Positions 6,811 to 41,415 of a stretch of DNA of 64,000 bases are shown piece after piece. This stretch comes from an uncultured Victivallaceae bacterium. GTDB taxonomy: Bacteria > Verrucomicrobiota > Lentisphaeria > Victivallales > Victivallaceae. The notes under the pieces were generated by a model. The model made no database searches. It saw only the letters and a list, made by a program, of their open reading frames with translations, and was not told where the DNA came from. The stretch is from contig CAYMSF010000019.1 in the NCBI GenBank assembly GCA_964392985.1, forward strand, positions 1,160 to 65,159. The letters run 5' to 3'. Numbering within the stretch: the stretch's first letter is position 1; each line of letters begins with the position of its first letter. The translations under genes and the position numbers were made by a program.

Positions 6811-8658
6811 CTATTCTACTGTAACACTTTTTGCCAGATTGCGCGGCTGGTCTATTTCACAACCGCGTTCGCGGGCAATATAGTATGAAAGCAACTGCAG
6901 CGCGACAACTGTCGGCAGTGGCGCCGTAAACTGTGAACACGGTGGCAGCCAGATGATATCTTCGGCGACATCTTTGACTTCTTTATCGCCTTCTGTCGCG
7001 GTGATGATGACGGGTGAATGTCTGGCATGACATTCTTGAATATTGCCGAGAATTTTATCTTTGCCGGGGATATCATTCGCGAGCGCAAGTACAGGAACTT
7101 TAGCTTCCAGCAGGGCAATCGGTCCATGTTTCAGTTCGGCGGCGTGATAACCTTCGGCATGAATGTAACTGATTTCTTTGAGTTTTAACGCTCCTTCCAG
7201 GGCGACCGGATAGAGGCAACCGCGTCCGATGAAGAAAAAGTCTTCGGCGCGAGCATATTTTTTTGCAATATTTTCAATTTCGCTTTTACGCTCCAGAACT
7301 TGACGAATTAAATCAGGAATTCTGTTAACATCATCAATAATCCTCAATCCATCCTCACGGGACAGTCTGCGGTTACGGCCGAATAACAGCGCCATCATCA
7401 ATAATACAGTTACCTGACAGGTGAAAGCCTTTGTTGATGCAACGCCGATTTCCGGACCGGCGTGAAGGTAAATACCGCGCCCGGCTTCACGGGCAATCGT
7501 AGAACCGACAACATTGCATATTGACACAACCGTAGCACCTTTTGTCGCAGCCTCGCGTACTGCCGCAAGTGTATCGGCAGTTTCTCCTGACTGGCTGATC
7601 GGTATCACCAGTGAATTCGGTTCAATAATCGGATTCCGGTAGCGGAATTCCGCCGCCTGTTCAATCTCCACCGGTATTCCGGCAAGCTCTTCAAAGAAAT
7701 AACGTCCGACCATTCCGGCATGCATGCTGGTGCCGCAGGCGGCGATAATTATCCTGCTGACCTGCGCCAGATCTTTTGATGTCATATTTAAACCAGAGAA
7801 TACTGAGGTGACAGTATTCCGGTCCAGACGGCCGCGAATAGAATTGCTGACGGCATCGGGTTGTTCGCAAATTTCCTTCAGCATAAAATGTTCGTAGCCA
7901 CTTTTTTCTGCTGCTTCCGGGGACCAGTCAATATTGGCAATTTCGCGGGCGACGGGAATATTTTCAATATTTCTTATATCAATATCAGTGGCGGTAATTC
8001 TGGCCACGTCATGATCGTTGAGGTAAATCACCCGGCGGGTATATGCCGCCAGGGCGGCGATGTCACTGGCAACGAAGGTTTCATTTTCGCCGACACCGAT
8101 AACCAGCGGGCTGCCTTGGCGGGCGACAATAATTGTTCCAGGAGCGTCTTCGGCAATGACAGCCAGACCGTAAGTGCCCTTGACTCGCTTTAAGGCCGCC
8201 GCGACAGCGCTGAACAGATCACCTTCGTAGCACTCGGAAATCAGATGTGCCAGCACTTCGGTATCGGTTTCAGAAACAAATTTGCGTCCTTTTTCCTGCA
8301 GATGGGCACGTAAGCTGGCATAATTCTCAATGATGCCGTTATGGACTATGGCAAAACGACCGGAATCATCACAATGCGGATGAGCATTCGGTACCGTCGG
8401 CGGTCCGTGTGTCGCCCAACGGGTATGGGCAATGCCGACTGTCGCAGTCGTTGCAAGTTCAGGTCCCAATTCCTGGACGATTTTGATTTCCAGCTCTTTA
8501 CTGACTTTGCCGATGGCCTTGATAACTTTTATTGCTGGTTGCTCAAGCAAGGCGATACCTGCCGAGTCGTAACCACGGTATTCCAATCGCTTTAATCCGT
8601 CAACAAGAGTTCTTACCAGATTGCGTTTACTGCCAGCATAACCTACTATTCCACACAT
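6811..8658 (-). CDS. glmS: glutamine--fructose-6-phosphate aminotransferase (isomerizing)
   Basis: MCGIVGY Ntn start at 8658 with AGGAG upstream (the track ORF extends to 8721). Two SIS domains. C-terminal ...NLAKSVTVE. Confidence 0.95.
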   Translation of the reverse strand: MCGIVGYAGSKRNLVRTLVDGLKRLEYRGYDSAGIALLEQPAIKVIKAIGKVSKELEIKIVQELGPELATTATVGIAHTRWATHGPPTVPNAHPHCDDSGRFAIVHNGIIENYASLRAHLQEKGRKFVSETDTEVLAHLISECYEGDLFSAVAAALKRVKGTYGLAVIAEDAPGTIIVARQGSPLVIGVGENETFVASDIAALAAYTRRVIYLNDHDVARITATDIDIRNIENIPVAREIANIDWSPEAAEKSGYEHFMLKEICEQPDAVSNSIRGRLDRNTVTSVFSGLNMTSKDLAQVSRIIIAACGTSMHAGMVGRYFFEELAGIPVEIEQAAEFRYRNPIIEPNSLVIPISQSGETADTLAAVREAATKGATVVSICNVVGSTIAREAGRGIYLHAGPEIGVASTKAFTCQVTVLLMMALLFGRNRRLSREDGLRIIDDVNRIPDLIRQVLERKSEIENIAKKYARAEDFFFIGRGCLYPVALEGALKLKEISYIHAEGYHAAELKHGPIALLEAKVPVLALANDIPGKDKILGNIQECHARHSPVIITATEGDKEVKDVAEDIIWLPPCSQFTAPLPTVVALQLLSYYIARERGCEIDQPRNLAKSVTVE

Positions 8659-8845
8659 TTTAAGGCTCCTTGAAATTAAAAAAAGCTCTCTAAATGTAAT
8701 GCCTGAAACCTCTTTTAGCAAGAGCTTCAGCTAAAATCCGGGCATATTTTCTCAATATACAGCCAGGCAAAGTTCTATATTTTAAAAGCGCGTATTGTTT
8801 AGACTTGATAACTTTTATGTTCCCTTTTGGCATATTCAATTATTG

Positions 8846-8891
8846 TTGACAAAATTGTAACGACACATTGTCGCATTGACAAAAATGTAAC
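8846..8891 (+). promoter_or_regulatory. pair of 16-mer direct repeats, candidate upstream activator sequence for a sigma-54 activator
   Basis: TTGACAAAATTGTAAC (8846-8861) and TTGACAAAAATGTAAC (8876-8891), with palindrome CGACAcatTGTCG (8861-8873) between them. They lie 90-135 bp upstream of the sigma-54 promoter at 8981. A near-identical motif pair occurs upstream of the EBP gene at 35582-35637. Confidence 0.35.
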
Positions 8892-8980
8892 AATAGAGAA
8901 AGGTAAACTGCATGATTAATGAAGCCACAAAAAACATAAAATGCTTATGATTAATTATTTACATATATTAATACAATAGT

Positions 8981-8996
8981 TGGCATTGTAATTGCT
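8981..8996 (+). promoter_or_regulatory. sigma-54 (RpoN) -24/-12 promoter
   Basis: TGGCAT-TGTAA-TTGCT, with GG (8982-8983) and GC (8994-8995) separated by exactly 10 nt. This matches TGGCAC-N5-TTGCW at all key positions. It is oriented toward the secretin-like genes. Confidence 0.55.
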
Positions 8997-9054
8997 TAAA
9001 AGGTTTTGTCTTCAGTGAATTTGTCAACGGAACCAATTTAAAGTGAGGTATACT

Positions 9055-9164
9055 ATGCGACAACAACAAAACAGTTTAATGTAAGGTGCGGAATGCCGGA
9101 GATCACCCCCTTTCCCGGCATTCCGACAACCCTTACAAGAGCGGGAATCCCGGCATCGGGATTC
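9055..9164 (+). promoter_or_regulatory. structured 5' leader: mini-ORF plus two hairpins with alternative pairing
   Basis: GAGG-N7-ATG mini-ORF MRQQQNSLM* (9055-9084). Hairpin GTAAGG..GGAATGCCGG(9090-9099)/CCGGCATTCC(9115-9124)..CCTTAC(9131-9136). Second hairpin GAATCCC(9145-9151)/GGGATTC(9158-9164), whose loop region CCGGCAT could pair with the first 5' arm instead. Confidence 0.3.
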
Positions 9165-9233
9165 AGAATGTAGTTATATGATAATTAAGTTTTAAGTAGT
9201 TGAAACCAAATAAATAAGTTAAAAAAGGAAAAG

Positions 9234-10817
9234 ATGAAAACAATATTTAAGACAGTATTGTTGTTGCTGATGGCGTTATGCTTCAGCGTACAGGCGGAAA
9301 AAGTAAAGAAACTTCGATTAAATCAGGATGATGCGCAGTCGTTCCTGGTCTCAAAGACCTACGAATTGAAGCACACCCGGGCATGTGATATTGCCCCGTT
9401 CGTCGAAGGCGCGGTAAAACGCTATAACGTTGACTCCAATGTTCAGCGGCTTGACTTTAAAGCCGGCGGCAAGGAGATTCTGGTAGTCAGTACCGGCGTG
9501 GATATGATGCCTTATATTGACGACATGATTGCCAAGGTTGACATTCCCGGGGTAAAAGATGTTTCCGGTTCCGTTGTTGAAGGAACCGGGATCAGCCGTT
9601 TTGCCTATTATCCTAAAAATCGTGCAACAAAAGATATGTTGAAGGTTTTGCGGAATAATGTACTGCCTGGCAATAGTGCAGTATTTCTTGATGAAAGCGT
9701 TTCGATGTTGTATTGGAAATGTTCAAAATCCGATGGCGACATGGTGATGCGTTGGATTAACGAGCTTGACCGTCCGGTACCGCAGGTACAGGTGAAGATG
9801 CGGGTGTATGAAGTTCGCGACAGCGATCTGACTGATATCGGTATCAATTATATTGCCTGGAAAAACGGACCGGGTATGGACTTGTTCGGCGCCGGGCTTG
9901 AAGCCATCAGCCTTTCCGGCTGGGACGAAGTTGTTAAAGCTGCCGCCTTCCAGGGAGCAAACGTCATGAGCCAGGCCAGTTGGGCATGGGGCGGTTTCTT
10001 CTGCGCGCCGCAGTTTGATTTCAGCTTTGTCCGGATGCTTGCCCAGGACGGTAAAGCCAGAATTGCTGATTCCGGCAGTTTGACGGTTGTAAACGATTTT
10101 GACAACTCATATTCCATTAAATTTACTCCGGATTTTCAGAATATCATCAAAACGCCGGATACTGACCAGATGAGCGTTGAACCCAGTTCACCGTCAATCT
10201 TTGAAATGACGATCAACCAGCCGGTAATCTGTTTCAAAGGCGCTGGTAACACTGTAACAGAATCTGCAGACGACCGGCGTTATGACGAAGAGAAAGCGTC
10301 AACGACTGAAGGAACAATTATGTTCAACTATTTTGTTTCTAAAGCTGATCCGGTTGAACGCAATAACTTTGGACAGGAACTTTATCAGACGATGAACGCT
10401 TCGTCAAATCTGACATTGGCCGTTGGTAATGAACGTTTACTGGCAACCTGGAAAAAGGAATATGACACAGAGCAGACCATTGGTATGCCATTCCTTTCCG
10501 ACATTCCGATATTAAAATATCTCTTTGGCACAACGACGAAAATTAAGTCCACCAATTATTACTTCGTCACCGTCAAAGCGGAATGGGTCATGCCGGATGC
10601 AGAACTCGCCGGATGGGCAGGTAAATTACTGTCTCAGGAAATGCTGATTAAAAAACCCGCAGATAAAACTGCAACTGTAGCTGCAGCACCTGTCGCTCCG
10701 GTAGCGGCACCAGCTCCTGCGGCTCCGTCTGCTCCAGTAGTACCACCAGCGACACCGGCAGTTCCGGCAACTCCTGCCGCTCCGGTAGCAGTCGCTCCGG
10801 CTGCCGCAGCTAAATAA
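9234..10817 (+). CDS. secretin-family outer-membrane channel protein (GspD/PilQ-like) with C-terminal Pro/Ala-rich tail
   Basis: Signal peptide. NolW-like N-domain (FLVSKTYELKHTRACDIAPFVEGAV). Secretin domain onset VQVKMRVYEVRDSDLTDIGINY. C-terminal secretin motif GMPFLSDIPILKYLFG. About 45-aa tail AAAPVAPVAAPAPAAPSAPVVPPATPAVPATPAAPVAVAPAAAAK. Confidence 0.75.
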   Translation: MKTIFKTVLLLLMALCFSVQAEKVKKLRLNQDDAQSFLVSKTYELKHTRACDIAPFVEGAVKRYNVDSNVQRLDFKAGGKEILVVSTGVDMMPYIDDMIAKVDIPGVKDVSGSVVEGTGISRFAYYPKNRATKDMLKVLRNNVLPGNSAVFLDESVSMLYWKCSKSDGDMVMRWINELDRPVPQVQVKMRVYEVRDSDLTDIGINYIAWKNGPGMDLFGAGLEAISLSGWDEVVKAAAFQGANVMSQASWAWGGFFCAPQFDFSFVRMLAQDGKARIADSGSLTVVNDFDNSYSIKFTPDFQNIIKTPDTDQMSVEPSSPSIFEMTINQPVICFKGAGNTVTESADDRRYDEEKASTTEGTIMFNYFVSKADPVERNNFGQELYQTMNASSNLTLAVGNERLLATWKKEYDTEQTIGMPFLSDIPILKYLFGTTTKIKSTNYYFVTVKAEWVMPDAELAGWAGKLLSQEMLIKKPADKTATVAAAPVAPVAAPAPAAPSAPVVPPATPAVPATPAAPVAVAPAAAAK

Positions 10818-10862
10818 CTGAAAGCGAGAGAAACTAAAATGACAATAAAGGAGAACATAAAA

Positions 10863-12806
10863 ATGAATCGAAGTATGCTAGTTTTAATGGCGGCTTCCGC
10901 ATGCGGGCTGTTATTCTGCTCGAGCCTTTCGGCGCAGCAGATGGCGGGCAGAAACTATTCTGCCATAGATCCTGCGTCGCAGGTAAGAAGTAAAAACGTA
11001 AATCCCAGCTCACCGTATGAAAAGACCCAGGTTCAGGCGAATATTCTGATGAATCTGGACCGTGATACGGATCAGTTCCACTTCATCCGGGATAACAATG
11101 ACCCCTACGTTGTGACCAAAACGTATGTGTTGAAGAATGCTGATCCTTACGAAATCAGACCATTTGTCCGCAGTGCGGTAATGGCTAACCGGGTTAAAGA
11201 AAACAACACCACTGTTGAATGTATTAAATACAATGACGGTAAAGGAGTGTTGATTGTCTCGGCGGAAGAATATCGTTTCAAAAGTCACGACAACGGCATG
11301 AGCATTGACGAAATTGTAGCGGCCCTGGATAAGCCCTCCGTCACTTCTTCGTCAGGACAGACCACCTTCGTCTATTTCCCGAAATACTGGACTTCGCGGG
11401 ATTTGGCGCAGTTGGTAAAGAATGTCGGTGCGAACATTGAAGGTGATGATGTCGAATTACAGCGCGGTATGGACCATATTGATTATGATTCCGGTCTTAA
11501 CTGCATGTTCATGTATATTCCGCGTTATGGCCAGAAGAATATTGAAAAAATGCTCAAACTGTATGACACCCCGACTTATGAAGTTGAAGTAAAATACAGC
11601 GTGTATGAAATTTACGCTGAAAATGATGCCAAAATCGGTGCGGATTTCCAGGCGTGGAAAAACAATGGCGGCTCAGATCTGTTTGCCGCCGGCGGCCGTT
11701 ACCGTGATAACTGGAGTGCCACCTGGGATGGCGGCGCCAGCAAGAACGGCAGCAACAATACCGGATATGTAAATTTCAATCCGAAATGGAATACCCGTTA
11801 CCTTGATTTCCTGGTATCAACCGGGAAGAGCAGTGTCGTTACTTCCGGAGAATTGCTGGTCATGAATCAGGCTACGGGAAAAGTTGAATGCCGTACCAAT
11901 ATGTATAACTTTGAAAACGGCGACAAGATTCCTGATAAAGCAGTTATTTCCGGATGTATGTTCCCGTCAGGAAACTTCTACGTAAGCACTACGGCGGCTG
12001 CAGCAGGAATTGAAGGTGGATACCGGATCGTCGCCTGCGACAGTTCAGGTACCCCGGTAGACTTCGCCGCGGATTTTGCCGGTCAGATTACGGTATCTAG
12101 AATTCAGAATGCTACAATAACCTCATATTTTGTGCGAGTATCTTCCGGCAGCGGAAATCTCGTCAAAAATGGTTCGAGTGTAGGTTCAAACGCGCAGTGC
12201 TTCTCGTTTTCTCTTGAAAAAGTTGTAAAAGTTGCAGACCCGATTACATCTTCGTACAATTACGAATGGGTTGCACAGACTGACTGGAGCAATGCAATTG
12301 ATATGGTCACTTACAAGGATACAAAAGTTGTGACCAATCCTGCAACTGTCGGTTACGGGTTCACTATGACGTTAGTGCCTGTTATCTGCGAGGAGTCCAG
12401 TACTGTTTCAATCAGTATGCTCAATGACAGCTTGACCGGATGGAATTCCAACGGAACTCCGCGCATTACCAGAGACAGCTCTGTGAATACTAAGGTGATG
12501 TTGAGTAACAAAGGCAGTCAGTTTGTCATCGGCGGATTGGAAAAGAAGAATGTCGTCAAGGGCGTGAGTGGAGTACCGTTCCTGAAAAGCATCCCGTTCC
12601 TCGGCTACCTCTTCTCGACCGAATCTGAATCCACGAAGAAAGCTCAGTTGGTTCTGGTTATTGACCTGAAACTCAAAGATCCGGATTCCCCGGTAAAGAG
12701 TCCTGTCAGCGAAGATTTGCTGGCGGTAAACAAAAAGACTGTTGATGCCGGAGTCAAAATTGAGTATGGATTTGATCAGTACTATCTTGACAAGGACAAA
12801 AAGTAA
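10863..12806 (+). CDS. secretin-family outer-membrane channel protein, paralog of the upstream gene
   Basis: Start at ATG 10863 (AAGGAG 8 nt upstream; the track ORF starts at 10839). YVVTKTYVLKNADPYEIRPFVRSAV, YEVEVKYSVYEIYAENDAKIGADF and GVSGVPFLKSIPFLGYLFS are collinear with the upstream protein. It carries a Ser/Thr/Gly-rich insertion of roughly 180 aa. Confidence 0.75.
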   Translation: MNRSMLVLMAASACGLLFCSSLSAQQMAGRNYSAIDPASQVRSKNVNPSSPYEKTQVQANILMNLDRDTDQFHFIRDNNDPYVVTKTYVLKNADPYEIRPFVRSAVMANRVKENNTTVECIKYNDGKGVLIVSAEEYRFKSHDNGMSIDEIVAALDKPSVTSSSGQTTFVYFPKYWTSRDLAQLVKNVGANIEGDDVELQRGMDHIDYDSGLNCMFMYIPRYGQKNIEKMLKLYDTPTYEVEVKYSVYEIYAENDAKIGADFQAWKNNGGSDLFAAGGRYRDNWSATWDGGASKNGSNNTGYVNFNPKWNTRYLDFLVSTGKSSVVTSGELLVMNQATGKVECRTNMYNFENGDKIPDKAVISGCMFPSGNFYVSTTAAAAGIEGGYRIVACDSSGTPVDFAADFAGQITVSRIQNATITSYFVRVSSGSGNLVKNGSSVGSNAQCFSFSLEKVVKVADPITSSYNYEWVAQTDWSNAIDMVTYKDTKVVTNPATVGYGFTMTLVPVICEESSTVSISMLNDSLTGWNSNGTPRITRDSSVNTKVMLSNKGSQFVIGGLEKKNVVKGVSGVPFLKSIPFLGYLFSTESESTKKAQLVLVIDLKLKDPDSPVKSPVSEDLLAVNKKTVDAGVKIEYGFDQYYLDKDKK

Positions 12807-12885: not shown

Positions 12886-12913
12886 GGCCGGTCCCCCTCC
12901 GGCCGTTTTTTTT
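12886..12913 (+). terminator. rho-independent terminator
   Basis: GGCCGG-tccccct-CCGGCC followed by GTTTTTTTT. Confidence 0.8.
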
Positions 12914-13048
12914 GCCCGTAATTCCACATTAAAGTCCATCAAAATCTTGTTTTTAAATGCTTTACTATTGACAAATTTCCGAAACGCAGTATTCGTAATT
13001 GATCACTATTCCTTAAGTTAATTAAAATAATAACCATGGGGTGCTGGA

Positions 13049-15341: not shown

Positions 15342-17783
15342 CTATTTCTTTTCCAGAATATCCAGAATATCCATCCTGGCCTTGTCCGCCAGCGCGCATG
15401 GAGTCTTGTCAGTTTTCCATTGACTCCAGTATCTCTTTCCGGACATGCGCGAGGAGCCTTCCGTTACCCCTGCCGCGATGGACCTGGCGGCGTCCTCCCT
15501 GCCGGAGGCTTTCAGCATGACCAGATAATTATAATCCTGGATGCCTTCACGGATGGCTTCCATCTGCTTGGCCGGGGTGACAGAATCCGGAGAAATATAG
15601 GCGGGACTGTAGTCGTAACGAAACAAGTTGGTATATGGGTTCCAGTTGGAATCCAGACGGCTAGTGTCGCTGAAGCTCCAGAAGCCGGAACCAGTGGCAT
15701 TCAAAATGAAAGCCTGCCATGGCTGAAGCCGGAAGTATGACGGATCAAAATCGCGGTTAGGTTGAATGCAGAAATATAACCATAACTCACCGTTTTTTTT
15801 GAGATGATCTTCAAAGACTTTACGAATATCTTTATTGCTGTTGTATTCCTCAATATGCTGCACTAGATGCGAGCATATGACATCCGCGTCTTTTAAAGAT
15901 GTAGAGATGCGCCCGAAGGTTTTATTTCTGGCGATTTCTGAAGGATCTGAGAAAATCGTGATTCCGGTGTTGGCTGCTTTGACGGCGGCAATCCATTTTT
16001 CCAGAATATCATAATGTGCATTGGTCTGAGGTTCGTCAAGAATGTTCAATTGTATTTGCGAAGGCTTCAATCCTTTGGATTTTGCATGTTCACTGAGCTT
16101 CTTCACCCATTGTCCGACGCCGTTGTTGAATTCCGGCGACCCCGGTTTAGCGCCGGCAAAATTCTGATTTGCCGATGTCACATGCAGGAAGATATGATAA
16201 ATCTTAGCTCCGCTCCATGCCTGAATCCATTTGTCAAAGTTGGAGAAATCCGGTTCTCCAAGCAGATTGCCTGACGCGTCAACATCCTTCGCCTCGGGCA
16301 ATCCTGAGACATTGCGGTTCCCCACCGCCACATTGGTCAAATACTCTTTCATCATGGCTACTGCCTGGGCACGATTGCCATCTTTAATGGCATACCAGTT
16401 ATCGGTTGCATAATCCCAAAGCAGACTCTTGAAATCAGCCGCAGCATACTTCACCGGAGAAACAGTCAATGTCACCGGCACAGATTTCACTTCATTCACG
16501 CCGGAGAAAAATTTGATTTCGCCTTTATAGATTCCAGGAGCGACATTTTCAGGGCGGAACGAAAACCATAACTGCCTGGTCATGCCCGCAGGGACACTAA
16601 TCGCATAGCTGCCGTCCGCTGCCGGCCTGGCTTCAAGCATAGCGGAGAAACTCACCACCAATTGTTTGGTGTCTACGCCTTCAATCTGATATACTCTGAA
16701 ACATTGCGGAACTCCACTGGTCTTCATCGTCAGTTTCGTGTCAGCCTGGTTGGCATTGGTAATATTCAGCACATCGCCCCGGCTCTCGCCGTTCATCATC
16801 CTCACCGCCATCTCCGCAGGAGCTTGGCCCGGCAGTTCAAACATCGCCAGTCGCTCATAACGGTTTTTATGCCAGAAAGTGAGTCCAGGGAAACCGTTTG
16901 CCGAAATTACTTGCGAATAAAGCGCGATAATTGCGGCATGAAGTTCGTTTTCCGGAATAACCGCCTTGAAATCAGCCGGATCGCCTTTGAACTCATAATT
17001 CAATGCTTCCTGACGCAATGCCGCCAACTTTTGCAGCAGTTGCTTTCTGTCGCTCTCTGTCAATTTTGATTTTTCAGCCAGTTTCCTGATTGCGATAATA
17101 TCATTCAGCATCCGACGCTTAATCATTTTAACAGTAAATATTTTCCCCATTTCCTTGTCTGAAAGTTTCTTAGCAGCCGGACGCTCCGCATTCATATTTT
17201 CATTCGGCCCGGCAAAAACTTGAATTTCATCACAAAAGATATAGGCAGGCGAGGCATAACAATGAAACTTGACATAGCGCCCTTTAGTCTTCAAATTTTC
17301 AGCACGGTACGTATAAATCCGGCAGCCATCTTCCTGTAAGGGCTGTTCCGCCAGATTGCAATCTGTCAAGTCAACAACATCAAAGAAATCTTTGTTGTCA
17401 TCGCTGACAAGCACTTTAATCATTGGCGGCCAGTTGACGCCGCCGCCGATATTTCCCCCGGTGGTATTAAAAGAAAAACCGGAAATCGGCTTTATCTCGC
17501 CCAGGTCAATCGTTATCTCCACATCTTTTTTTTCCTGCCAGCCGACGGTGTTACCCTTGTCCAGCAAAAAACCGACGTTATTGTTATTTGCGGTCTTGAG
17601 TGATTTGCCATCTGTCAGCTGTAACATATCGCCCTGGTCGGTACAACCTCCATAATTAGGTTTTACGCTAAAAGTATATGGTTTGTTCAATGCCAGATTT
17701 TCTGGAGAATCACCTGCTGAAAACACTGGCGAGAACATACTTGAAGATAACACTAACGATACAATAACAATGGGGAAACGCAT
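15342..17783 (-). CDS. secreted putative glycoside hydrolase (DUF4091/GH123-like) with N-terminal F5/8 type C (discoidin) domain
   Basis: Start at ATG 17783 (MRFPIVIVSLVL signal peptide, GAGG upstream; the track ORF extends to 17819). Discoidin-like N-terminus (LTDGK...VEITIDLGEIKPISGFSF). C-terminal part has LNILDEPQ and ELWLYFCIQP...GSGFWSF. The family call is tentative. Confidence 0.6.
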   Translation of the reverse strand: MRFPIVIVSLVLSSSMFSPVFSAGDSPENLALNKPYTFSVKPNYGGCTDQGDMLQLTDGKSLKTANNNNVGFLLDKGNTVGWQEKKDVEITIDLGEIKPISGFSFNTTGGNIGGGVNWPPMIKVLVSDDNKDFFDVVDLTDCNLAEQPLQEDGCRIYTYRAENLKTKGRYVKFHCYASPAYIFCDEIQVFAGPNENMNAERPAAKKLSDKEMGKIFTVKMIKRRMLNDIIAIRKLAEKSKLTESDRKQLLQKLAALRQEALNYEFKGDPADFKAVIPENELHAAIIALYSQVISANGFPGLTFWHKNRYERLAMFELPGQAPAEMAVRMMNGESRGDVLNITNANQADTKLTMKTSGVPQCFRVYQIEGVDTKQLVVSFSAMLEARPAADGSYAISVPAGMTRQLWFSFRPENVAPGIYKGEIKFFSGVNEVKSVPVTLTVSPVKYAAADFKSLLWDYATDNWYAIKDGNRAQAVAMMKEYLTNVAVGNRNVSGLPEAKDVDASGNLLGEPDFSNFDKWIQAWSGAKIYHIFLHVTSANQNFAGAKPGSPEFNNGVGQWVKKLSEHAKSKGLKPSQIQLNILDEPQTNAHYDILEKWIAAVKAANTGITIFSDPSEIARNKTFGRISTSLKDADVICSHLVQHIEEYNSNKDIRKVFEDHLKKNGELWLYFCIQPNRDFDPSYFRLQPWQAFILNATGSGFWSFSDTSRLDSNWNPYTNLFRYDYSPAYISPDSVTPAKQMEAIREGIQDYNYLVMLKASGREDAARSIAAGVTEGSSRMSGKRYWSQWKTDKTPCALADKARMDILDILEKK

Positions 17784-17905
17784 AAAATTAACCTCGTTGA
17801 TATTTTGAATACTTTGCAATAAACCGAACCTATGAACTGAAGCTGACTGTAAGAGTCGGCTTGTTCTTTAAGTCCTTTGTGTTCAGTTATACGCTGCTGC
17901 TGGCA

Positions 17906-18670
17906 TTACTTTGACAGCGGATTCCAGCGATTGTCTGTTGTCGTTGTATAATTGCCAAGAGTGGCGCCGACTCCATTGTAGAGTGGTTGTGACGTTCCGT
18001 TGGAAGATTTAACTGTAGCTACATGACCGTCAAGCCATAACACATTACAATAATATCTGGAATGAATCGGGTAAGCCAACCCGTTGTCGGCGCTAGCTGT
18101 ATATGATGCATAAATGTATTCCACAGGCATAAATGGCGACCAGAACGCAGCCGTGGGAACTGTATTGGTGACCTTGGTATCGGTAGCATAAACTTTGCGT
18201 GATGGACGTACTACTTCTGTAACCTTGTAACGGCGCTTGGGAAATCCCACTACATTATAATCGAACGCTGTGGCAATATTAATGCCATAAGAGAGATATT
18301 CGGTTGAAATTAACCGCTTAACATCACCAACGGCCTTCAGCGTTTCAGGGCAAAGCAGTGGCTTGACCGTGTCGAAGTATTTCAAATACGATAATACACC
18401 GCCCCAGCGGCACCGTCTCCAGTCGCCAGATATTGCCGCCGGTGCTCCGTATCCTGAAAGCGTATAACGAATAATATAGTCCTGATTGTCGCTGGAGTAA
18501 TTTGACAGCCCCAGCCCGGCTTGTTTCAGGTTTGAAGTGCACTGCGCTGTCGTAGCCGTCGCTCTTGCTTTGTTAAGAGCTGGCAGCAACATTGATGCGA
18601 GAATCGCTATGATAGCGATCACCACGAGGAGTTCGATGAGTGTGAAATTTTTACTTTTAAACAGTTTCAT
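17906..18670 (-). CDS. prepilin-type N-terminal cleavage/methylation domain protein (DUF1559-type pseudopilin)
   Basis: Start at ATG 18670 (GGAAGG upstream). [31 protein letters not shown]-terminal NVLWLDGHV motif. Confidence 0.9.
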
Positions 18671-18793
18671 TGGTACATACCTTCCGTTATTTTTAGTTTG
18701 TAAATATATTATACATGAAATCATTTCATATGTCAAGTATTATTTAAAAAAAACTTTAAAATTTTGTATTTTTCATAAATAGGAAGTACATTA

Positions 18794-18807
18794 ATGAAAA
18801 GTTTCAT
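18794..18807 (+). promoter_or_regulatory. candidate LacI-family operator
   Basis: Palindrome ATGAAA-AG-TTTCAT in the divergent pseudopilin/lacI intergenic region. A related palindrome lies at 21725-21739. Confidence 0.4.
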
Positions 18808-18833
18808 ATTGTTATGAATAATACTGTCATTTT

Positions 18834-19796
18834 ATGAATAAAAAAAAGAAAATTTCAGATATAGCGACATCTGCTGGAGTTTCTCCAGCCACTGTTTCGC
18901 GAGTTTTTAACCGTCACCCGTATGTCAAGGATGAAATACGGAATAGGGTTCTGGAAGTTGCGCGCCGGATGAAATATTCTCCCAAGTTCAGTGCCACCAA
19001 AAACAACATCGGGATAGTTGTAAACGGGATTGACGGCATCAACCTGGGGCAATTTGAAGTATTAATGATAACTGCGCTTTCACAGCTATTCTTTAAACGC
19101 AGTTACGCTTTTGAAATCATTCCGCATACATCTGTTCCGATGTTACATAACACTTCACTGAAGGGATTGATCGCGATTTCATCCGCCGCCGCTAACGCGC
19201 TTAAAGGGTTGGATATTCCAATGCTGACAGTAAACCACGAAATTGAAGGGATTCCATCTGTTTCTACCGACCACCGGCAGGGATTGAAAATGGCGGTTGA
19301 TTATTTATTTTCCAAAGGGCATCGGCAAATTGCTTACATAGGAGAAACACCAGACTCAGGGGCATGGGGGATGGCTGAACGTACGAGCGGTTATCGTGAC
19401 GGTCTTGCTGCCAACGGCTTGGAATTCGAGCCGTTATTTACAAAGAAAGTTGAAGAATCGCTACTTGAAGCTTCTGCGCGCATCGCAAAAACCGGTTGCA
19501 CTGCAGTTATCGTTGGCTGCGAAGGTATTGTTCCTCAGTTCTGCTATATGATGTATTTGATGAACAAGTCAATTCCGGCAGACATTTCAACTGTATCTTT
19601 TGAAACCGCCAATCTCTCGCAATATATTGTTCCGCCACAGACGACGATAGACCAGAATTTTCCAACACTTGCCGAGACCGTGGTCAACCGCTTGGATGAA
19701 CTGATTGCGGGGAAAACGCTTGATCCGGTTAACCTGCGCCTGGCAAACCGGCTGATTGAGAGGGAATCTGTGCTCAATATGATTAAACGCTCTTAA
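18834..19796 (+). CDS. LacI family transcriptional regulator
   Basis: ISDIATSAGVSPATVSRVFN HTH plus a periplasmic-binding-fold sugar sensor domain. Confidence 0.9.
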   Translation: MNKKKKISDIATSAGVSPATVSRVFNRHPYVKDEIRNRVLEVARRMKYSPKFSATKNNIGIVVNGIDGINLGQFEVLMITALSQLFFKRSYAFEIIPHTSVPMLHNTSLKGLIAISSAAANALKGLDIPMLTVNHEIEGIPSVSTDHRQGLKMAVDYLFSKGHRQIAYIGETPDSGAWGMAERTSGYRDGLAANGLEFEPLFTKKVEESLLEASARIAKTGCTAVIVGCEGIVPQFCYMMYLMNKSIPADISTVSFETANLSQYIVPPQTTIDQNFPTLAETVVNRLDELIAGKTLDPVNLRLANRLIERESVLNMIKRS

Positions 19797-26004: not shown

Positions 26005-26703
26005 ATGGCAAAAGAAAAAATTCTGGTGATTGAGGACGAGGAAGATATTCAGGAATTGATTAAGTACAACCTGCGCAAAGAGGGTTACGAAAATCTCCAG
26101 TTTGCCGATTCCGGTGAAGACGGTCTGCGTCTTGCCAATACATTCATGCCGGATATTATTTTACTTGACCTGATGTTGCCGGGAATGGACGGATTATCGG
26201 TCTGCCGTAACCTAAAAAGCAAACCCGAAACATCCAAAATAGCTGTCATCATGCTGACGGCAAAGAGCGAAGAAACCGATGTGATTATCGGTTTGGAAAT
26301 GGGCGCTGATGACTACATTCCGAAACCATTCAGCCCCAAAATACTCATTGCCAGAATAAAAGCTGCGTTACGCCGGAATGCCGAGGTACAGGATAACGGC
26401 TCAAAAAACATTGTTAAACGGGGCCCCCTGGTCTTAAATAAAGGGAAACGGGAGGCGAGTCTCGCCGGGAAACCGCTGGTGCTGACATTTTCTGAGTTTG
26501 AAATTTTGTACTTTTTGGCGCGACGTCCCGGTTGGGTTTACACTAGAAATCAAATTGTGAATGCGGTCAAGGGCGATGATTATCCGGTTACCGAACGTTC
26601 AATAGATGTGCAAGTTGTCGGATTGCGCAAAAAGCTTGGCGATGCCGGCGAACTTATTGAAACGGTGCGTGGTGTCGGTTACAGATTCATAGAAACATAT
26701 TAG
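26005..26703 (+). CDS. OmpR/PhoB family response regulator
   Basis: REC domain (ILVIEDEEDI...LLDLMLPGMDG...MLTAK) plus winged-helix output (ETVRGVGYRF). Confidence 0.92.
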   Translation: MAKEKILVIEDEEDIQELIKYNLRKEGYENLQFADSGEDGLRLANTFMPDIILLDLMLPGMDGLSVCRNLKSKPETSKIAVIMLTAKSEETDVIIGLEMGADDYIPKPFSPKILIARIKAALRRNAEVQDNGSKNIVKRGPLVLNKGKREASLAGKPLVLTFSEFEILYFLARRPGWVYTRNQIVNAVKGDDYPVTERSIDVQVVGLRKKLGDAGELIETVRGVGYRFIETY

Positions 26704-26719
26704 GAATCTAAATTCAGCT

Positions 26720-28510
26720 ATGAAACGTGACTTATTCTATTTTCTGCCGCTGATTATTGTGTTTTCAACCGTTGCCCTGCTCGGATTTGTCTGGTATGAA
26801 TCTACTACTACAGAACAAATCTACCTCGAAGAAGTTGAGCATAATCTGCTCATAAGGGCAAATTTACTCAAACGGGAAGTTGTCAAGGCAATAAGTGGCG
26901 CCGGCGGTATTGACGAGGCCATTAAATATTGTGCCAGCGCCCATCAGGATTCAGAAGCCAGGCTTACGTTGATTGCCCCGGATGGCAAAGTTATTTATGA
27001 TTCCGACAGCAACGCGGATAAGTTGCCGACGCACGCCTCCAGGCCGGAAATAATCGAGGCGCATAAAGGTCATGTCGCTTTTGCCGACCGTTTCAGCTCC
27101 ACTCTAAACCAGCGCATGATATATGTCGCCGTTCCTGTCAGCGTCACGGGGAATAATAATTTCTATGTTCTAAGAATTGCGGCTTCTTTTCATGTTATTG
27201 ACAGCATGTTGAGCAGTTCGCGCCGCCAGATTTTGTTCGCCGGCCTTCTGGCTGCCGGCATAGTAGCTATTCTCAGTTTTGTCATTGTAAACCATCTTAG
27301 CAAGGCGGTTTCAGAGTTGCAGGAAAATGCGGCGAAGATTGCTGCCGGGAATCTGGATATCAAGCTTCCCGTACCGACGCGCGGCGCCATGCACGGTCTG
27401 GCTATTTCACTGAATAATATGGCGGAACAACTCAAACAGCGGATTAGCGAGATAACAAATAAAAAAAATGAGCGCGATGTTATTTTCTCCAACATGACAG
27501 AAGGGGTTATTGCCGTTGATTTAAGCGGAAAAATTCTTGACATAAATACCGCCGCAGTTAAAATTTTTGATTTACCGGCGAATGCGACCGGATTATCTTT
27601 TTACGGAGTCATCCGTAATCCGCAAATGCAGAATTTTCTCAATCAGATTATCACTGAAAAGAAAATGCTGGAAAGTGAATTTATTATTCACTCGCTGCAG
27701 GAACGTTTTTTGCGTGCGCGTGGCGCTTGTATAAAAATTGACGAGGATAATATCAATGCAGTGCTTATCGTTGTTTCAGACGTTACCCGCATTAAAAAGC
27801 TTGAAAACTTCCGCCGCGATTTTATCGCTGATGTTTCCCATGAAATAAAAACTCCGCTCACCGCCATCAAAGGCGCGGTGGAAACACTCAACGACGGCGC
27901 TATCAATGATCCGGCAACAGCGACCAAATTCATGGATATTATTTCACGCCATGCCGACCGGATGAATGCTTTGGTCAGAGATATACTCAGCCTTTCCGAA
28001 CTGGACCGCCGGGCGAACGGAGATGAAATCCCGTTTGACGTCATTAAAATTGCGGCGCCGGTCAACAGTGCCGTAGAATTTTGCCGCGATCGCGCGGTTG
28101 AGAAAAATATGATTATTGAACTGCAACCAGTACCTGCCATAAAAATTAAAGGTGACGCGCAATTACTTGAGCAGGCGGTGTCAAATCTGATTGATAATGC
28201 TATTAAGTATAATCCAGAAGGCACGTCCATAAAAGTGGCGGTATATCAGGATGGCAAAGATGTTGTCATCAGCGTTACTGACAACGGATGCGGCATTGAA
28301 GCCGAACATTTGCCACGGTTGTTTGAACGGTTCTACCGCGTTGACCGCGCCAGAAGCCGGAAACTGGGCGGAACCGGACTCGGATTAGCGATTGTCAAAC
28401 ACATTGCACACGTTCATAAAGGCTTTGCTGATGTTGAAAGTACTGTAGGTAAAGGCAGTAAATTTATTATCCGCATAACTTCGACTGGCCTTGAAGGTTC
28501 CTCTATTTGA
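26720..28510 (+). CDS. sensor histidine kinase (periplasmic sensor-HAMP-PAS-HisKA-HATPase)
   Basis: FIADVSHEIKTPLT H-box, DNAIKYN N-box, GGTGLGLAIV G-box. Two TM segments flank a loop of roughly 150 aa. Confidence 0.92.
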   Translation: MKRDLFYFLPLIIVFSTVALLGFVWYESTTTEQIYLEEVEHNLLIRANLLKREVVKAISGAGGIDEAIKYCASAHQDSEARLTLIAPDGKVIYDSDSNADKLPTHASRPEIIEAHKGHVAFADRFSSTLNQRMIYVAVPVSVTGNNNFYVLRIAASFHVIDSMLSSSRRQILFAGLLAAGIVAILSFVIVNHLSKAVSELQENAAKIAAGNLDIKLPVPTRGAMHGLAISLNNMAEQLKQRISEITNKKNERDVIFSNMTEGVIAVDLSGKILDINTAAVKIFDLPANATGLSFYGVIRNPQMQNFLNQIITEKKMLESEFIIHSLQERFLRARGACIKIDEDNINAVLIVVSDVTRIKKLENFRRDFIADVSHEIKTPLTAIKGAVETLNDGAINDPATATKFMDIISRHADRMNALVRDILSLSELDRRANGDEIPFDVIKIAAPVNSAVEFCRDRAVEKNMIIELQPVPAIKIKGDAQLLEQAVSNLIDNAIKYNPEGTSIKVAVYQDGKDVVISVTDNGCGIEAEHLPRLFERFYRVDRARSRKLGGTGLGLAIVKHIAHVHKGFADVESTVGKGSKFIIRITSTGLEGSSI

Positions 28511-35581: not shown

Positions 35582-35637
35582 TTAACAAATTTGTAATAAA
35601 AACCGGAATGGCTATATTAATTTAACAAATTTGTAAT
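35582..35637 (+). promoter_or_regulatory. pair of 16-mer repeats upstream of the sigma-54 activator gene (candidate autoregulatory sites)
   Basis: TTAACAAATTTGTAAT at 35582-35597 and 35622-35637 (exact copies, 40-bp period). The core ACAAATTTGT is a perfect palindrome. 13/16 match to the 8846 motif. Confidence 0.35.
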
Positions 35638-35697
35638 TCTGTGGGTTGGGTTTATTGATTAAATAACAGTGTAACAATTTTATAGGGGGGGAATTTG

Positions 35698-37230
35698 ATG
35701 GATAAGCCTGGAAACCTTGAAATGGCGGTCTTAAATCAGATCAGCCATGTATTAGTGCATCAAAAAAATGTTTCGGCATTGATGAAAGAGATTTTGGATA
35801 TTCTTTACCGCGAAATGGGGTTAAAGCGCGGAACTTTCACGCTACGACGCGGAGATGTACTGTTTATTGAAGCGTCTCACGGGTTGAGTGATGCTGAAAT
35901 AACCCGGGGCAAATATCATATTGGCGAGGGCATTACCGGAAAGGTGGCGGCGACATGTCAACCACTGGTCATTCCGGATATTTCTCAGGAACCTGGATTC
36001 CTGGATCGTACTCAGGCGCGTTCTACCGAGAGGAACATTGCGTTCATTTGTGTTCCTGTTATCCATGATGGCGAAGCAATCGGAACATTGAGTATTGACC
36101 GGGAGCGGAGTGCTAATATTAACCTGGACCGGGATTTATATCTGGTGGAAACGGTGGCGAACATCGTTGCAGATGCCGTTGCGATGAGCGTGAAAGAACT
36201 TGAAGAACGGGAAAAACTGCTGGATGAAAACCGGCGTTTGAAGATTGAACTTGATAAAAATTTACGCCCGGGAAATATTGTCGGCAATTGCAGCAGTATG
36301 CGCGCTATTTACGCGATGATTGCTCAGGTTGCGGACAGTAGCGCAACAGTGCTGATTCGCGGCAGTTCCGGAACGGGAAAAGAGTTGGTGGCGCGAGCGA
36401 TTCACCATTCCAGCATTCGCAAAGATAAACCGTTCGTCGCGGTTAATTGCGCGGCGCTACCGGAAAATCTGATTGAAAGTGAATTGTTCGGACATGAAAA
36501 GGGTTCGTTTACCGGCGCCGTCAGCCGTCGTACCGGCAGAATTGAATCTGCCAACAACGGGACGTTGTTTCTTGATGAAATTGGTGATCTTGGTCAGGCG
36601 GTACAGGTAAAGTTGCTACGGTTCCTTCAAGAGAAAACTTTTGAGCGCATCGGCAGCAATGAAGAGATCAAAGTCGACGTTAGAATTCTTGCCGCGACCA
36701 GCCGTAATCTGGAAAAATTAATGGTGGAAAACCGTTTTCGTGAAGATTTGTATTACCGGCTGAATGTTTTCCCCATCCACGTTCCTGACTTGAAGGACCG
36801 TCGCGCTGACATCATGTTGCTGGCAGATAACTTTCTCGAAAAATATAACCGGATGTATGACCGCACTATCAAGCGGATTTCAACACCGGCAATCAATATG
36901 ATGATGGCATATCATTGGCCCGGCAATGTCCGGGAGCTGGAAAACTGCATTGAAAGAGCCGTTCTGACTGCCAATGACGATGTTATTCATGGTTATAACC
37001 TGCCTCCGTCTCTGCAAACGGGTCAGGCGACAAATACGGCTACGATTGTTCCAGAGAAAAATGCCGACATGGATACTTTGGTCTCATCGTTTGAGCGTGA
37101 ATTGATCGTTGATGCTTTAAAACTGAAGCGCGGCAACGTTGCGGCCGCCGCCAGACAACTCGGCATTACTCAGCGTATAATTCATTATAAAATAAAAAAA
37201 CTGGCGATATGCAGCACGATGTACACATGA
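35698..37230 (+). CDS. sigma-54-dependent transcriptional activator, GAF-AAA+-Fis HTH (NifA-like architecture)
   Basis: GAF N-terminus. Walker [24 protein letters not shown] (GAFTGA variant). C-terminal [20 protein letters not shown]. An ATG at 35698 follows TTG 35695, with AGGGGGG upstream. Confidence 0.9.
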
Positions 37231-39601: not shown

Positions 39602-39647
39602 ACAGTTAAAAGCGTGTCGGATATATTGACACGGTTTGGTAATTTAC

Positions 39648-40232
39648 ATGAGTGAACTGAGTGACGCCGAAATAGTCGGCAGTGTGCTTAATGGCGATAT
39701 TGATGCGTTTGGATTGCTGGTAGATCGTTATCAGGCGAAAGTTCTCGCGATTGCCGGACGACGCGTTCCATCATCAGAAGCGCAGGAGATTGCGCAAAGA
39801 ATTTTCATTGCGGCATTCAAGAGTCTGGGCGGGTTTTCCCGGAAAAAACCTTTTGAGCACTGGCTGGCGGGGATTGCTGTACGTAGTTGTTGTGATTACT
39901 GGCGTTCCAGCGGTTACAGCCGGTCGTTACGGTTGGAACCGGACGAAGATTATTGCAACTGGTTTGAAGAAATCGGTCAAGCCAGTTCGGTTGAGCATTG
40001 CGCAACGTTGTTGCAACGGCAGGAGACGGTTGAGATTATGAATTTATGTCTTTCTCAACTAAAACCGGAAGACCGGGCAGTTTTAGAGCTGGTATATTTT
40101 GAAGATTTACCTTTAAAGGAAGTTGCCGGTATGATGGAATGGGGTTTGGCTAAAACTAAAATTAAAGCAATGCGCGCAAGGAATAAGTTGCGGGAGAATA
40201 TAAAACAATTGATGAAGGAACATAAAATATGA
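39648..40232 (+). CDS. ECF (RpoE-like) sigma-70 family sigma factor
   Basis: Region 2 (FGLLVDRYQAKV...FEHWLAGIAVRSCCDYWR) and region 4 (LELVYFEDLPLKEVAGMMEWGLAKTKIKAMRARNKL). ATG at 39648 (the track starts at TTG 39636). Confidence 0.9.
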   Translation: MSELSDAEIVGSVLNGDIDAFGLLVDRYQAKVLAIAGRRVPSSEAQEIAQRIFIAAFKSLGGFSRKKPFEHWLAGIAVRSCCDYWRSSGYSRSLRLEPDEDYCNWFEEIGQASSVEHCATLLQRQETVEIMNLCLSQLKPEDRAVLELVYFEDLPLKEVAGMMEWGLAKTKIKAMRARNKLRENIKQLMKEHKI

Positions 40233-40648
40233 AAAAAGAGATAATAAACTTCCGGTTCAGCAGGTTTCGACGTATTGTCCGCGGTTTTTTTACCGGAAAT
40301 AATTCTGACGTTGATTTGTGTCAGGAAGATTCTCCGGCTGTTGATAATGTTATCGTTGATAATATCGAAAAAGTTTTTAAGTCTGCCTATCAATCATTAC
40401 CCGACACTGTTCATCCATCGGCGGAACTGCGCAGCAATGTGATGAATGCAATCCGCCGGGTAAACCTGCCTAAATCAATATTCCCCTACGAAGAAATAGT
40501 TTGTTGGCGCGCAGCATGGACTTCATTGGCCGCGACCCTGATAATCGCCTCATTGATAGGTTTCATTAATTTAAGGGAGGATGATGGCACGGGCGAGTCC
40601 AGAATTGCTGATAAAATGGTAGCGTATAACGACAACGCTCAGGAGTAA
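40229..40648 (+). CDS. putative anti-sigma factor (single-pass membrane protein)
   Basis: ATGA overlap with the sigma gene. One TM segment (AAWTSLAATLIIASLIGFI). The call rests on position. No zinc-binding anti-sigma motif is seen. Confidence 0.55.
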   Translation: MKKEIINFRFSRFRRIVRGFFTGNNSDVDLCQEDSPAVDNVIVDNIEKVFKSAYQSLPDTVHPSAELRSNVMNAIRRVNLPKSIFPYEEIVCWRAAWTSLAATLIIASLIGFINLREDDGTGESRIADKMVAYNDNAQE

Positions 40649-40658
40649 AGATAATATT

Positions 40659-41057
40659 ATGAAAATGTTTCCTAAATCTAAAAAATTGCGTATTGCGATT
40701 GCAATATTTTTTCTTTCCGGGTTGATTCTCGGTACAACTTGCGGATACTACTGGGGAAAAAACACCCGGCGTGCCAGAATGGCGCCTGGTGAGTTTAAGC
40801 GGTATTTACATGAAAAAACCGTCTCCGAATTGGAATTGACGCCGGAACAGGAAAAACAGATTACCCCGATATTGGAAAGAAAATTTGAGAAGATTAATCA
40901 GATTCGGACACAATCATCCGGTGAACTGATAAAAATCGTTGCCGCCAGTTATGATGAGATGAAAGTTTTTTTAAAACCGGAGCAACAGCCTAAGTTGGAA
41001 GCGATGAAACAACGGAGCGTTACTCGTCTGCAGGAAAAAATCAGGGAGAAATTATAA
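40659..41057 (+). CDS. periplasmic Spy/CpxP-family (LTxxQ) protein
   Basis: N-terminal anchor or signal. LELTPEQEKQITPIL and LKPEQQPKLEAM resemble the paired LTxxQ motifs. Confidence 0.6.
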   Translation: MKMFPKSKKLRIAIAIFFLSGLILGTTCGYYWGKNTRRARMAPGEFKRYLHEKTVSELELTPEQEKQITPILERKFEKINQIRTQSSGELIKIVAASYDEMKVFLKPEQQPKLEAMKQRSVTRLQEKIREKL

Positions 41058-41059
41058 CA

Positions 41060-41338
41060 ATGAAAAGAATGTACAGATTATATCTCGTGCTGACTGCCGG
41101 GTGTTTGATTTTAATTGGCGGAGGCTGTGCGCTCGTCAATGAAGTTAAGGATTCCAATCGGCAATACGATGAAAAGCAGAAGGAAAAAAAGGCCAATCCG
41201 CAGGAAAAAAGTTTATTGCCTCCATCCATGGCGAATTATAATGATACCGAAAAACAGGAACTTGAGGCATTTTACAAACATACAGATCAGGAACGCAAGG
41301 CGATTAAAAAACAGGTTTATGGCGGACTTATGCCATAA
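41060..41338 (+). CDS. small lipoprotein
   Basis: MKRMYRLYLVLTAGCLILIGGGC lipobox-like N-terminus. Charged, Lys/Glu-rich remainder. Confidence 0.55.
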   Translation: MKRMYRLYLVLTAGCLILIGGGCALVNEVKDSNRQYDEKQKEKKANPQEKSLLPPSMANYNDTEKQELEAFYKHTDQERKAIKKQVYGGLMP

Positions 41339-41415
41339 CTGGAATAACAACAGAAACCTGTTAGTAATACTATAATATTTAAAGTTATTTTTAAAAACAT
41401 ATAGAAAGGGTTATC

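Follow-up and report, generated by a model that had tools for sequence, protein, structure and literature searches.

Tandem secretin paralogs of an uncultured Victivallaceae bacterium belong to an obligately paired family of Lentisphaerota with predicted ties to phosphate and nitrogen starvation regulons

In sum, our data point toward a family of paired outer-membrane secretins in Lentisphaerota that appears to be wired into nutrient starvation regulons without a secretion machine of its own. The pair under study lies in a stretch of 64,000 nucleotides (64 kb; the window) from an uncultured Victivallaceae bacterium (assembly GCA_964392985.1, contig CAYMSF010000019.1, positions 1,160 to 65,159) and consists of sec1 (9234..10817, + strand, 527 aa) and sec2 (10863..12806, + strand, 647 aa). 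Profile matches and structure models firmly support the reading that these are two genuine, diverged secretin paralogs. It is also firmly supported that they belong to an obligately paired, coevolving, multicopy secretin family that is devoid of the N0 domain and not linked to machine genes. Sec1 and Sec2, both without N0, most likely would co-assemble into one heteromeric outer-membrane channel, and the window pair would be the nitrogen-limitation member of the obligate sec1-sec2 family. With the placement of the family beside pstSCAB and amtB-glnK, the most likely function shifts from serving pseudopilins to nutrient acquisition; that the channel works as an import pore or gate for this purpose, without an inner-membrane machine of its own, is the reading we tentatively prefer, at a little less than an even chance.

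Secretins are the textbook homo-oligomeric exit gates of secretion, pilus, or phage machines; the ring is a 12- to 16-mer in the outer membrane and is homo-oligomeric in all solved cases. The initial annotation had described two tandem secretin paralogs of 527 and 647 aa with a common C-terminal motif, and this description holds. Both products pass the gathering score of the Pfam Secretin profile (PF00263; 31.6 bits for Sec1 and 63.8 bits for Sec2, at a threshold of 27.5 bits), and they are collinear paralogs with 25% identity over 306 residues (BLASTP, E = 3e-22). Each retains a complete secretin domain, and the C-terminal VPFL..IP..LF motif (AHL-type VPFL..IP) is common to the two. The open reading frame (ORF) of sec2 extends from 10839 to 12806 (+, 655 aa) if the first ATG is used, and a further alternative start lies at 10875; the start at 10863 is favored by the best ribosome-binding site (AAGGAG-N8-ATG), and the NCBI gene call (647 aa) agrees with it. 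AlphaFold2 models, with a mean predicted local distance difference test score (pLDDT) of 68 for Sec1 and 72 for Sec2, give each protein two beta-alpha-beta-beta-alpha N-domains followed by a beta-rich secretin domain. Foldseek matches these models to ExeD, GspD, PulD, InvG, PilQ, pIV, and RcpA with a probability of 1.00 and E values of 1e-15 to 1e-6.

The predicted domain order is thus a signal peptide, two ring-building N-domains, and a secretin domain in either protein. The signal peptides proposed earlier are plausible by inspection (MKTIFKTVLLLLMALCFSVQA/EK and MNRSMLVLMAASACGLLFCSSLSA/QQ). The NolW-like N-domain proposed with them was only partly borne out by profiles: Secretin_N stays below threshold in Sec1 (17.7 versus 28.2 bits), yet the models contain two N-domains in each protein, and PF03958 is found in many homologues. 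An N0/STN domain was detected in neither protein by profile search with E values up to 1, and the models have two ring-building motif (RBM) domains only. The Pro/Ala-rich C-terminal tail of Sec1 was found as described (approximately residues 478 to 527); it has low pLDDT values, and its length is not conserved across the family. Sec2 does carry an insertion in its secretin domain, described earlier as Ser/Thr/Gly-rich and roughly 180 aa long, but this segment is not of low complexity. By hidden Markov model (HMM) alignment, which places the insertion only coarsely relative to the gate and lip elements, the stretch is about 115 residues longer than its equivalent in ExeD/GspD, and it is modeled as a confident, folded beta-rich domain of about 115 to 150 aa (pLDDT of about 90, approximately residues 335 to 490 of the 643-aa form). 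In NCBIfam, both proteins fall far under every equivalog cutoff for GspD, PilQ, MshL, SctC, and HofQ. Sec1 and Sec2 score 32.6 and 61.6 bits with GspD (TIGR02517, cutoff 351), 36.8 and 50.7 bits with PilQ (TIGR02515, cutoff 284), 15 and 28 bits with the Amuc_1098 family (cutoff 750), and 23 to 26 bits with the DNA uptake porin HofQ (cutoff 554).

The pair had been presented as a single odd locus; instead, it is a member of a multicopy, phylum-level family with apparent ties to Pho and nitrogen regulons. More than 1,000 relatives of Sec2 are present in the protein collection, the named ones being from Victivallaceae or Lentisphaerae, and 91 clusters reach E <= 1e-30 among 1.84 billion 50%-identity representatives. 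The family counts given from here on refer to the best 80 of 523 related loci, obtained in a scan with one genome per species. All 80 are from Lentisphaerota, among them loci of Victivallis vadensis DSM 14823 and of the cultured strains WC36 and zth2; the family is compact and so far seen only in this phylum.

Pairing is strict. Of the sec2-type genes for which 1.7 kb or more of preceding DNA is available, 66/66 have a sec1-type gene directly before them, and of the sec1-type genes with room downstream, 68/68 are directly followed by sec2, with a median gap of about 24 nt between the two genes. Pairwise protein distances of Sec1 and of its partner Sec2 are correlated with r = 0.94, and therefore the pairs appear to duplicate and diverge as units. 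At least 20 assemblies among the best 80 of 523 matches have two to four pairs, and two genomes have a direct tandem of the order sec1-sec2-sec1-sec2 (L020, 1-6552; L047, 8627-16138), which shows duplication of the pair as a unit. The ratio of nonsynonymous to synonymous substitutions (dN/dS), calculated for the window pair and orthologs with 81 to 86% identity, is 0.05 to 0.08 for both genes; strong purifying selection thus acts on both, and neither sec1 nor sec2 is decaying. A recent duplication with one decaying copy was rejected on the basis of these values and of the phylum-wide split of sec1 and sec2 types; the duplication is ancient.

A heteromeric secretin, as considered in the initial annotation, thereby gains strong, albeit indirect, support from the conserved pairing, the short gaps, the correlated divergence, and the dN/dS values of both genes. 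It is imaginable, as an alternative, that the two proteins do not co-assemble and form separate homo-oligomeric rings, either stacked or alternative, or that one of them is an assembly factor or pilotin-like helper. All solved secretins are homo-oligomeric, and the extra domain is found only in Sec2 and the variable tail only in Sec1, which speaks for this view. However, strict 1:1 pairing, co-duplication, and correlated divergence are the prediction for an obligate complex, and neither protein has lost its secretin domain or its AHL-type motif. We therefore consider separate rings or a helper improbable and keep to one mixed ring as the preferred reading.

The genes are preceded by elements that point to nitrogen control. 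A sigma-54 -24/-12 promoter (TGGCATTGTAATTGCT, TGGCAT-N5-TTGCT; 8981..8996, +), already suspected before, is the sole intergenic match of the window; all four orthologous loci with upstream DNA (L004, L005, L006, and L009) keep its GG-N10-GC spacing, although the flanks have diverged. Two copies of the palindrome ACAAAWWTGTAAY (8849-8861 and 8879-8891, +) are located 90 to 130 bp before the promoter and are candidate upstream activator sites. From the promoter, a leader of about 240 nt extends to sec1. Behind sec2, a terminator scan found an intrinsic terminator (12886..12914, +; GGCCGG-loop-CCGGCC followed by T8). As judged from these elements, sec1-sec2 is a bicistronic sigma-54 operon, which would be composed of activator sites, sigma-54 promoter, structured leader, sec1, sec2, and the closing terminator, in this order.

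The palindrome leads to a candidate regulator. Counting exact matches only, the window has four copies, versus 0.03 expected, and 0/100 shuffles gave four. They are confined to the sec promoter region and to the region 60 to 110 bp upstream of a gene at 35695, where two exact copies (ACAAATTTGTAAT) are located (35585..35637, +). This gene (35695..37230, +) codes for a NifA-like sigma-54 enhancer-binding protein with the Pfam domains GAF, Sigma54_activat, and HTH_8 (AAA+ and Fis-type helix-turn-helix [HTH]); it matches the NifA family TIGR01817 from end to end with 487 bits (cutoff 529). The protein, encoded 23 kb downstream of the pair, is a probable activator of the sec1-sec2 operon and would act as its switch. 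With one mismatch allowed, the palindrome was intergenic in 33/48 cases over all loci, mostly about 45 to 180 bp upstream of a sigma-54 motif, and it precedes sec pairs (20) as well as amtB/P-II genes (12). Hence, the window pair appears to share its operator and promoter type with ammonium-transporter operons. The same combination of site and promoter would drive amtB-glnK in relatives, and sister pairs of the same genomes would belong to the Pho regulon beside pstSCAB-phoU. This predicted co-regulation with amtB-glnK, together with the NifA-like GAF architecture of the activator, suggests nitrogen status as the inducing signal of the window pair.

The leader itself may add a second level of control. 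A tiny upstream ORF (9055..9084, +; MRQQQNSLM) has its own GAGG ribosome-binding site, and its start, ATGCGACAACAA, is conserved in 5/5 orthologous leaders. It is followed by and overlaps with a structured region with two strong hairpins (9074..9165, +); the RNA fold of 9000-9240 has a free energy of -63.9 kcal/mol (z = -3.7), and 0/200 shuffles were as stable. Two to three Gln codons stand directly after the start codon of the tiny ORF, and the arms of the following hairpins could pair alternatively. The region from 9055 to 9165 could act as an attenuator coupled to translation and in this way sense glutamine or nitrogen status.

Closer inspection of the surroundings of the pairs is consistent with this picture. 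When all flanking ORFs were clustered, the recurrent neighbors were nutrient importers, and no secretion-machine gene recurred. At 15 loci, the pair adjoins pstS, pstC, pstA, pstB, and phoU; in most cases, it has the orientation of these genes and directly precedes them, and phoB/phoR and a gene for a metallophosphoesterase are often found alongside. At 7 loci, its companions are amtB and a P-II gene, for which at least three arrangements were seen (amtB-glnK-sec1-sec2, glnK-amtB-sec1-sec2, and divergent amtB/sec1), and in the partial locus L051, sec2 is followed by glnK-amtB. The neighbors PstS, PstC, PstB, PhoU, Amt, and P-II are all above their NCBIfam cutoffs.

A Pho-box-like direct repeat of CTAACA with an 11-bp period was found 48 times in intergenic and 3 times in intragenic positions with a strict pattern; the targets are sec pairs (20), pstS (13), phoB (4), and a metallophosphoesterase (PlcP/LpxH-like) gene (2). 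It is a candidate Pho box of Lentisphaerota. Loci with the repeat include L027, L034, L058, L063, L067, and L074, and in the tandem of strain zth2, it is present only at the second pair. With a slightly looser pattern, it is located upstream of 23/55 pairs, versus <1 expected. A sigma-54 motif (TGGCA-N8-GCT, -24/-12) was found upstream of 14/63 pairs in 450-nt regions (about 1 expected) and of 10 to 13 of 55 pairs in 350-nt regions. Divergent sigma-54 motifs for amtB and sec1 are present in L027 and L034, and a single motif heads amtB/glnK-sec1-sec2 in L032 and L033. Three pairs of the Lentisphaera type (L038, L041, and L053) have TTGGCAY-N7-TGTT about 40 to 70 nt before sec1; this is a possible sigma-54 promoter whose -12 element deviates, and it was excluded from the strict tally. 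In a neighbor-joining tree of concatenated Sec1 and Sec2, the window pair is in a clade of only sigma-54 or amtB type members, with the orthologs L004 to L007 closest, then L018 and L022, and then L001 and L010, where the pair is located after amtB-glnK. Pairs of the sigma-54/NifA-like class (N-class) and of the phosphate class (P-class) are found together in five genomes.

In our model, the channel would be a starvation-induced gate for the limiting nutrient across the outer membrane and would fill the regulon slot that is held elsewhere by PhoE/OprP-type porins. PhoE and OprP/OprO (the latter being tandem paralogs in Pseudomonas aeruginosa) are outer-membrane channels whose induction accompanies that of the pst transporter when phosphate is limiting. 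Their fold, a 16-stranded trimeric barrel, is wholly unlike the multimeric secretin ring, but the pair shares their genomic and regulatory niche, and by analogy it might share their function. We favor a stand-alone gate because the pairs are located inside importer operons in several independent arrangements, because separately regulated paralogs coexist in one genome, because there are many pairs and one Tad-like ATPase (see below), and because the gate region, as defined by solved structures, could not be aligned at the sequence level, has the lowest model confidence in both proteins, and is charged differently in the two classes. In the variable mid-secretin segment of Sec1, the charge is less negative for the P-class than for the N-class (median of 0 versus -4; P = 0.0045, uncorrected), which is a hint only, since significance is lost once 13 tests are corrected for and phylogeny is a confounder. 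Formation of hetero-oligomers, the nitrogen signal, transport direction, and substrate are inferred. The model in its full form, that is, stand-alone mixed-ring nutrient channels with a remodeled gate that functionally replace PhoE/OprP-type porins, with the P-class delivering phosphate to PstSCAB and the sigma-54/NifA-like class delivering ammonium or another nitrogen compound to AmtB, is possible but doubtful.

Several points weigh against an import pore without a machine. To our knowledge, all characterized secretins serve an inner-membrane machine or a phage, and none is known as a solute pore. A secretin ring of about a megadalton is a costly porin. In both proteins, the two periplasmic ring-building domains are conserved and an N-terminal motif strongly so, which suggests a common periplasmic partner. 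About 40% of the pairs have neither of the two motifs, and the embedding of the pairs in phosphate and nitrogen starvation regulons, firmly supported as it appears, is deduced from motifs. Last, Lentisphaerota do have a Tad/Kil-like machine in need of an outer-membrane partner, with no secretin gene beside its operon in six of the seven genomes examined, including the closest relatives of the genome with L002; its link to the pairs is one nonconserved adjacency, in L002.

This machine is the basis of the most serious alternative. At L002 (12091-20006), the pair is directly upstream of rcpC, FHA-cpaF, tadB, tadC, a DUF192 gene, an FHA-domain gene, and a PEGA-domain gene. Conservation of this seven-gene operon is high among Lentisphaerota, and its ATPase is 65 to 85% identical and apparently present in one copy per genome; a pilin or prepilin peptidase gene was found in cis in none of the seven operons (L002, L086 to L088, and L169 to L171). 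The pairs could thus be interchangeable outer-membrane modules for a type IV filament machine encoded in trans, with the Tad/Kil-like operon and its FHA-fused CpaF as the prime candidate, and the starvation regulons would select which gate is installed, be it for pilus extrusion or for the export of scavenging enzymes. The operon has RcpC but mostly lacks a secretin, and the conserved N-domains suggest a partner in the periplasm that the pairs have in common. A Pho-regulated precedent is Hxc of P. aeruginosa, a type II secretion system (T2SS) whose secretin HxcQ serves phosphate scavenging; there, however, the whole T2SS operon is co-located and co-regulated and has a single secretin, whereas only the secretin pair is present at the loci studied here. 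Furthermore, the Kil system of Myxococcus xanthus combines an FHA-fused ATPase, the short, N0-less secretin KilC, split gene clusters, and induction by starvation (PMC8460266).

On the other hand, the pair adjoins the operon in 1/80 pair loci and 1/7 Tad-like operons, and the adjacency is lost even in the closest relatives (ATPase identities of 85%, 77%, and 73%). In L002 itself, a terminator-like hairpin separates sec2 from rcpC. A sigma-54 motif is present before rcpC in 0/7 operons and a convincing Pho-box motif also in 0/7 (one AT-rich match in L086 was judged spurious). Several pairs per genome have to be reconciled with apparently one such ATPase, and the placement of pairs inside amtB-glnK and pst operons is left unexplained. 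The Tad-like operon was rejected as a partner in cis, given the absence of the adjacency from the six other genomes and the lack of common motifs; as a partner in trans, we regard it as conceivable, though unlikely. A metagenome scan with the FHA-CpaF alignment returned generic CpaF loci from other phyla only. CBM9 and Dus genes follow the Tad/Kil-like operon in four of the seven cases (L002 and L169 to L171). In strain zth2 (L086, 1-5120), an Akkermansia-like type IV pilus cluster resembling Amuc_1098-1102 (PilM_2/FtsA-like and Amuc_1102-family genes) is encoded on the strand opposite to that of the Tad-like operon and begins about 4.6 kb upstream of it; further filament systems, possibly with a secretin of their own, are thus present in these bacteria.

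Machine genes are also missing from the window, as the initial annotation had stated for ATPase, platform, and prepilin peptidase. Neither a Pfam scan of all window ORFs of at least 150 aa nor tblastn of the window with Tad proteins revealed T2SSE, T2SSF, or prepilin-peptidase genes. No gspC-M genes were found, and no pilMNOP genes nearby; the sole PilM_2 match in the window is MreB. In 79/80 related loci, no machine genes (T2SS, type IV pilus, type III secretion system, Tad, or phage) are present within 10 kb. A canonical machine just outside the window was rejected as an explanation, since the source contig, at 67.5 kb, reaches only about 3.5 kb further and the 10-kb flanks of the relatives are without machine genes.

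A pore for nutrient polymers has to be considered, too. The pairs might be uptake gates for extracellular DNA, polyphosphate, or peptides, similar to PilQ/HofQ and operating with a retractile pseudopilus. A pore of secretin size fits polymers, nitrogen and phosphorus starvation regulons are both involved, and in L005 and L008, a PilT-like ATPase is encoded a few kilobases from the orthologous pair. The NCBIfam similarity to HofQ mentioned above is weak and far from the cutoff, though; competence or pilus genes are not consistently linked to the pairs, and the retention of coexisting paralogs of about 40% identity within a genome speaks for differing specificities instead of a single substrate. 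We give this possibility little credence and retain the gate for the limiting nutrient as the preferred reading.

A viral origin is the least probable of all: the pairs would be prophage-derived, pIV-like secretins for the extrusion of filamentous phages. The best PDB sequence match of Sec1 is indeed pIV of phage f1 (E = 9e-15). Furthermore, release of chronic phages is described for the Lentisphaerae strains WC36 and zth2, together with an upregulation of secretion-system genes with laminarin (eLife paper, PMC11361711). Yet 2.9 million IMG/VR viral contigs contain no relatives of the pair, phage genes adjoin none of the pairs, and the pairs keep a stable synteny on the chromosome with housekeeping, pst, and amt genes, so that we find phage extrusion hardly credible.

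Compared with known systems, the pair shares the C-terminal secretin domain, the predicted ring fold with Foldseek E values of 1e-15 to 1e-9, N3-type domains, and the VPFL..IP..LF loop with GspD/PulD, PilQ, and InvG/YscC. It differs from them in its tandem diverged paralogs, the lack of N0, the copy number, and the starvation-regulon promoters and in not being encoded with ATPase, platform, or pilin genes. Like Sec1 and Sec2, KilC, RcpA, and CpaC are short secretins without N0, but Kil and Tad have a single secretin gene inside one machine cluster, whereas Lentisphaerota have several pairs, almost never beside the Tad-like operon and without common promoter motifs. The FHA-CpaF operon of Lentisphaerota resembles Kil with its FHA-fused ATPase, except that a secretin is missing, and in structure, the models match GspD better than RcpA (8odn). 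pIV is a minimal secretin with few N-domains that is encoded apart from host machine genes, as is the pair; however, it is single, phage-borne, and works with pI/pXI, whereas the pairs are chromosomal and lack viral relatives and phage neighbors.

The pair family thus departs from three expectations for secretins: it has two diverged subunits, it occurs in several copies, and it is apparently wired into starvation regulons without a machine. If mixed rings do form, they would be the first heteromeric secretin known to us, and if nutrients enter through them, the secretin fold would have a new role. Outer-membrane transport in the Planctomycetes-Verrucomicrobia-Chlamydiae (PVC) group is poorly understood, and a nutrient-importing secretin would bear on nutrient uptake by these bacteria. 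The cultured carriers (V. vadensis DSM 14823, WC36, and zth2) make the prediction directly testable. As a by-product, candidate motifs of Lentisphaerota for the Pho box and for binding of the nitrogen activator were obtained. The initial annotation had regarded the arrangement as undescribed; in keeping with this, a literature search on heteromeric, tandem, or orphan secretins, on secretins of Lentisphaerae or Victivallis, and on secretins together with pstS or porins returned nothing describing such pairs, from a library that is incomplete; the eLife paper on WC36 and zth2 mentions no more than the upregulated secretion-system genes.

A few observations concern other parts of the window. Upstream of the sec operon, glmS (6811-8721, -) is divergently oriented, with an intergenic region of 512 nt (8722-9233); its sigma-70-like promoter (8882-8854) overlaps the palindromic sites. 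The latter are assigned to the sec operon because the upstream neighbor differs in orthologous loci. The intergenic region has no Rfam match at E values up to 1, and no glmS ribozyme was detected. At 26005-28510, an OmpR-type response regulator and an sCache-HAMP-PAS histidine kinase are encoded, which share 61% and 40% identity with the PhoB/PhoR-like pairs beside the pst operons of relatives. By this similarity, they are probably the PhoBR system of this genome; they adjoin neither pst genes nor the sec pair.

The pair had also been proposed to serve a large pseudopilin repertoire, for which we found no supporting evidence; DUF1559 genes are merely scattered near pairs. Two DUF1559 (SBP_bac_10) pseudopilin genes are present in the window. 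One (17906-18736, -) sits between genes for a GH123-like/F5_F8_type_C protein and a LacI regulator, and the other (41416-41949, +) is located about 1.2 kb downstream of a gene for an extracytoplasmic function (ECF) sigma factor. Both are beside carbohydrate genes (15342-19796 and 39636-41949), and these regions look like sugar-utilization loci rather than pilus operons.

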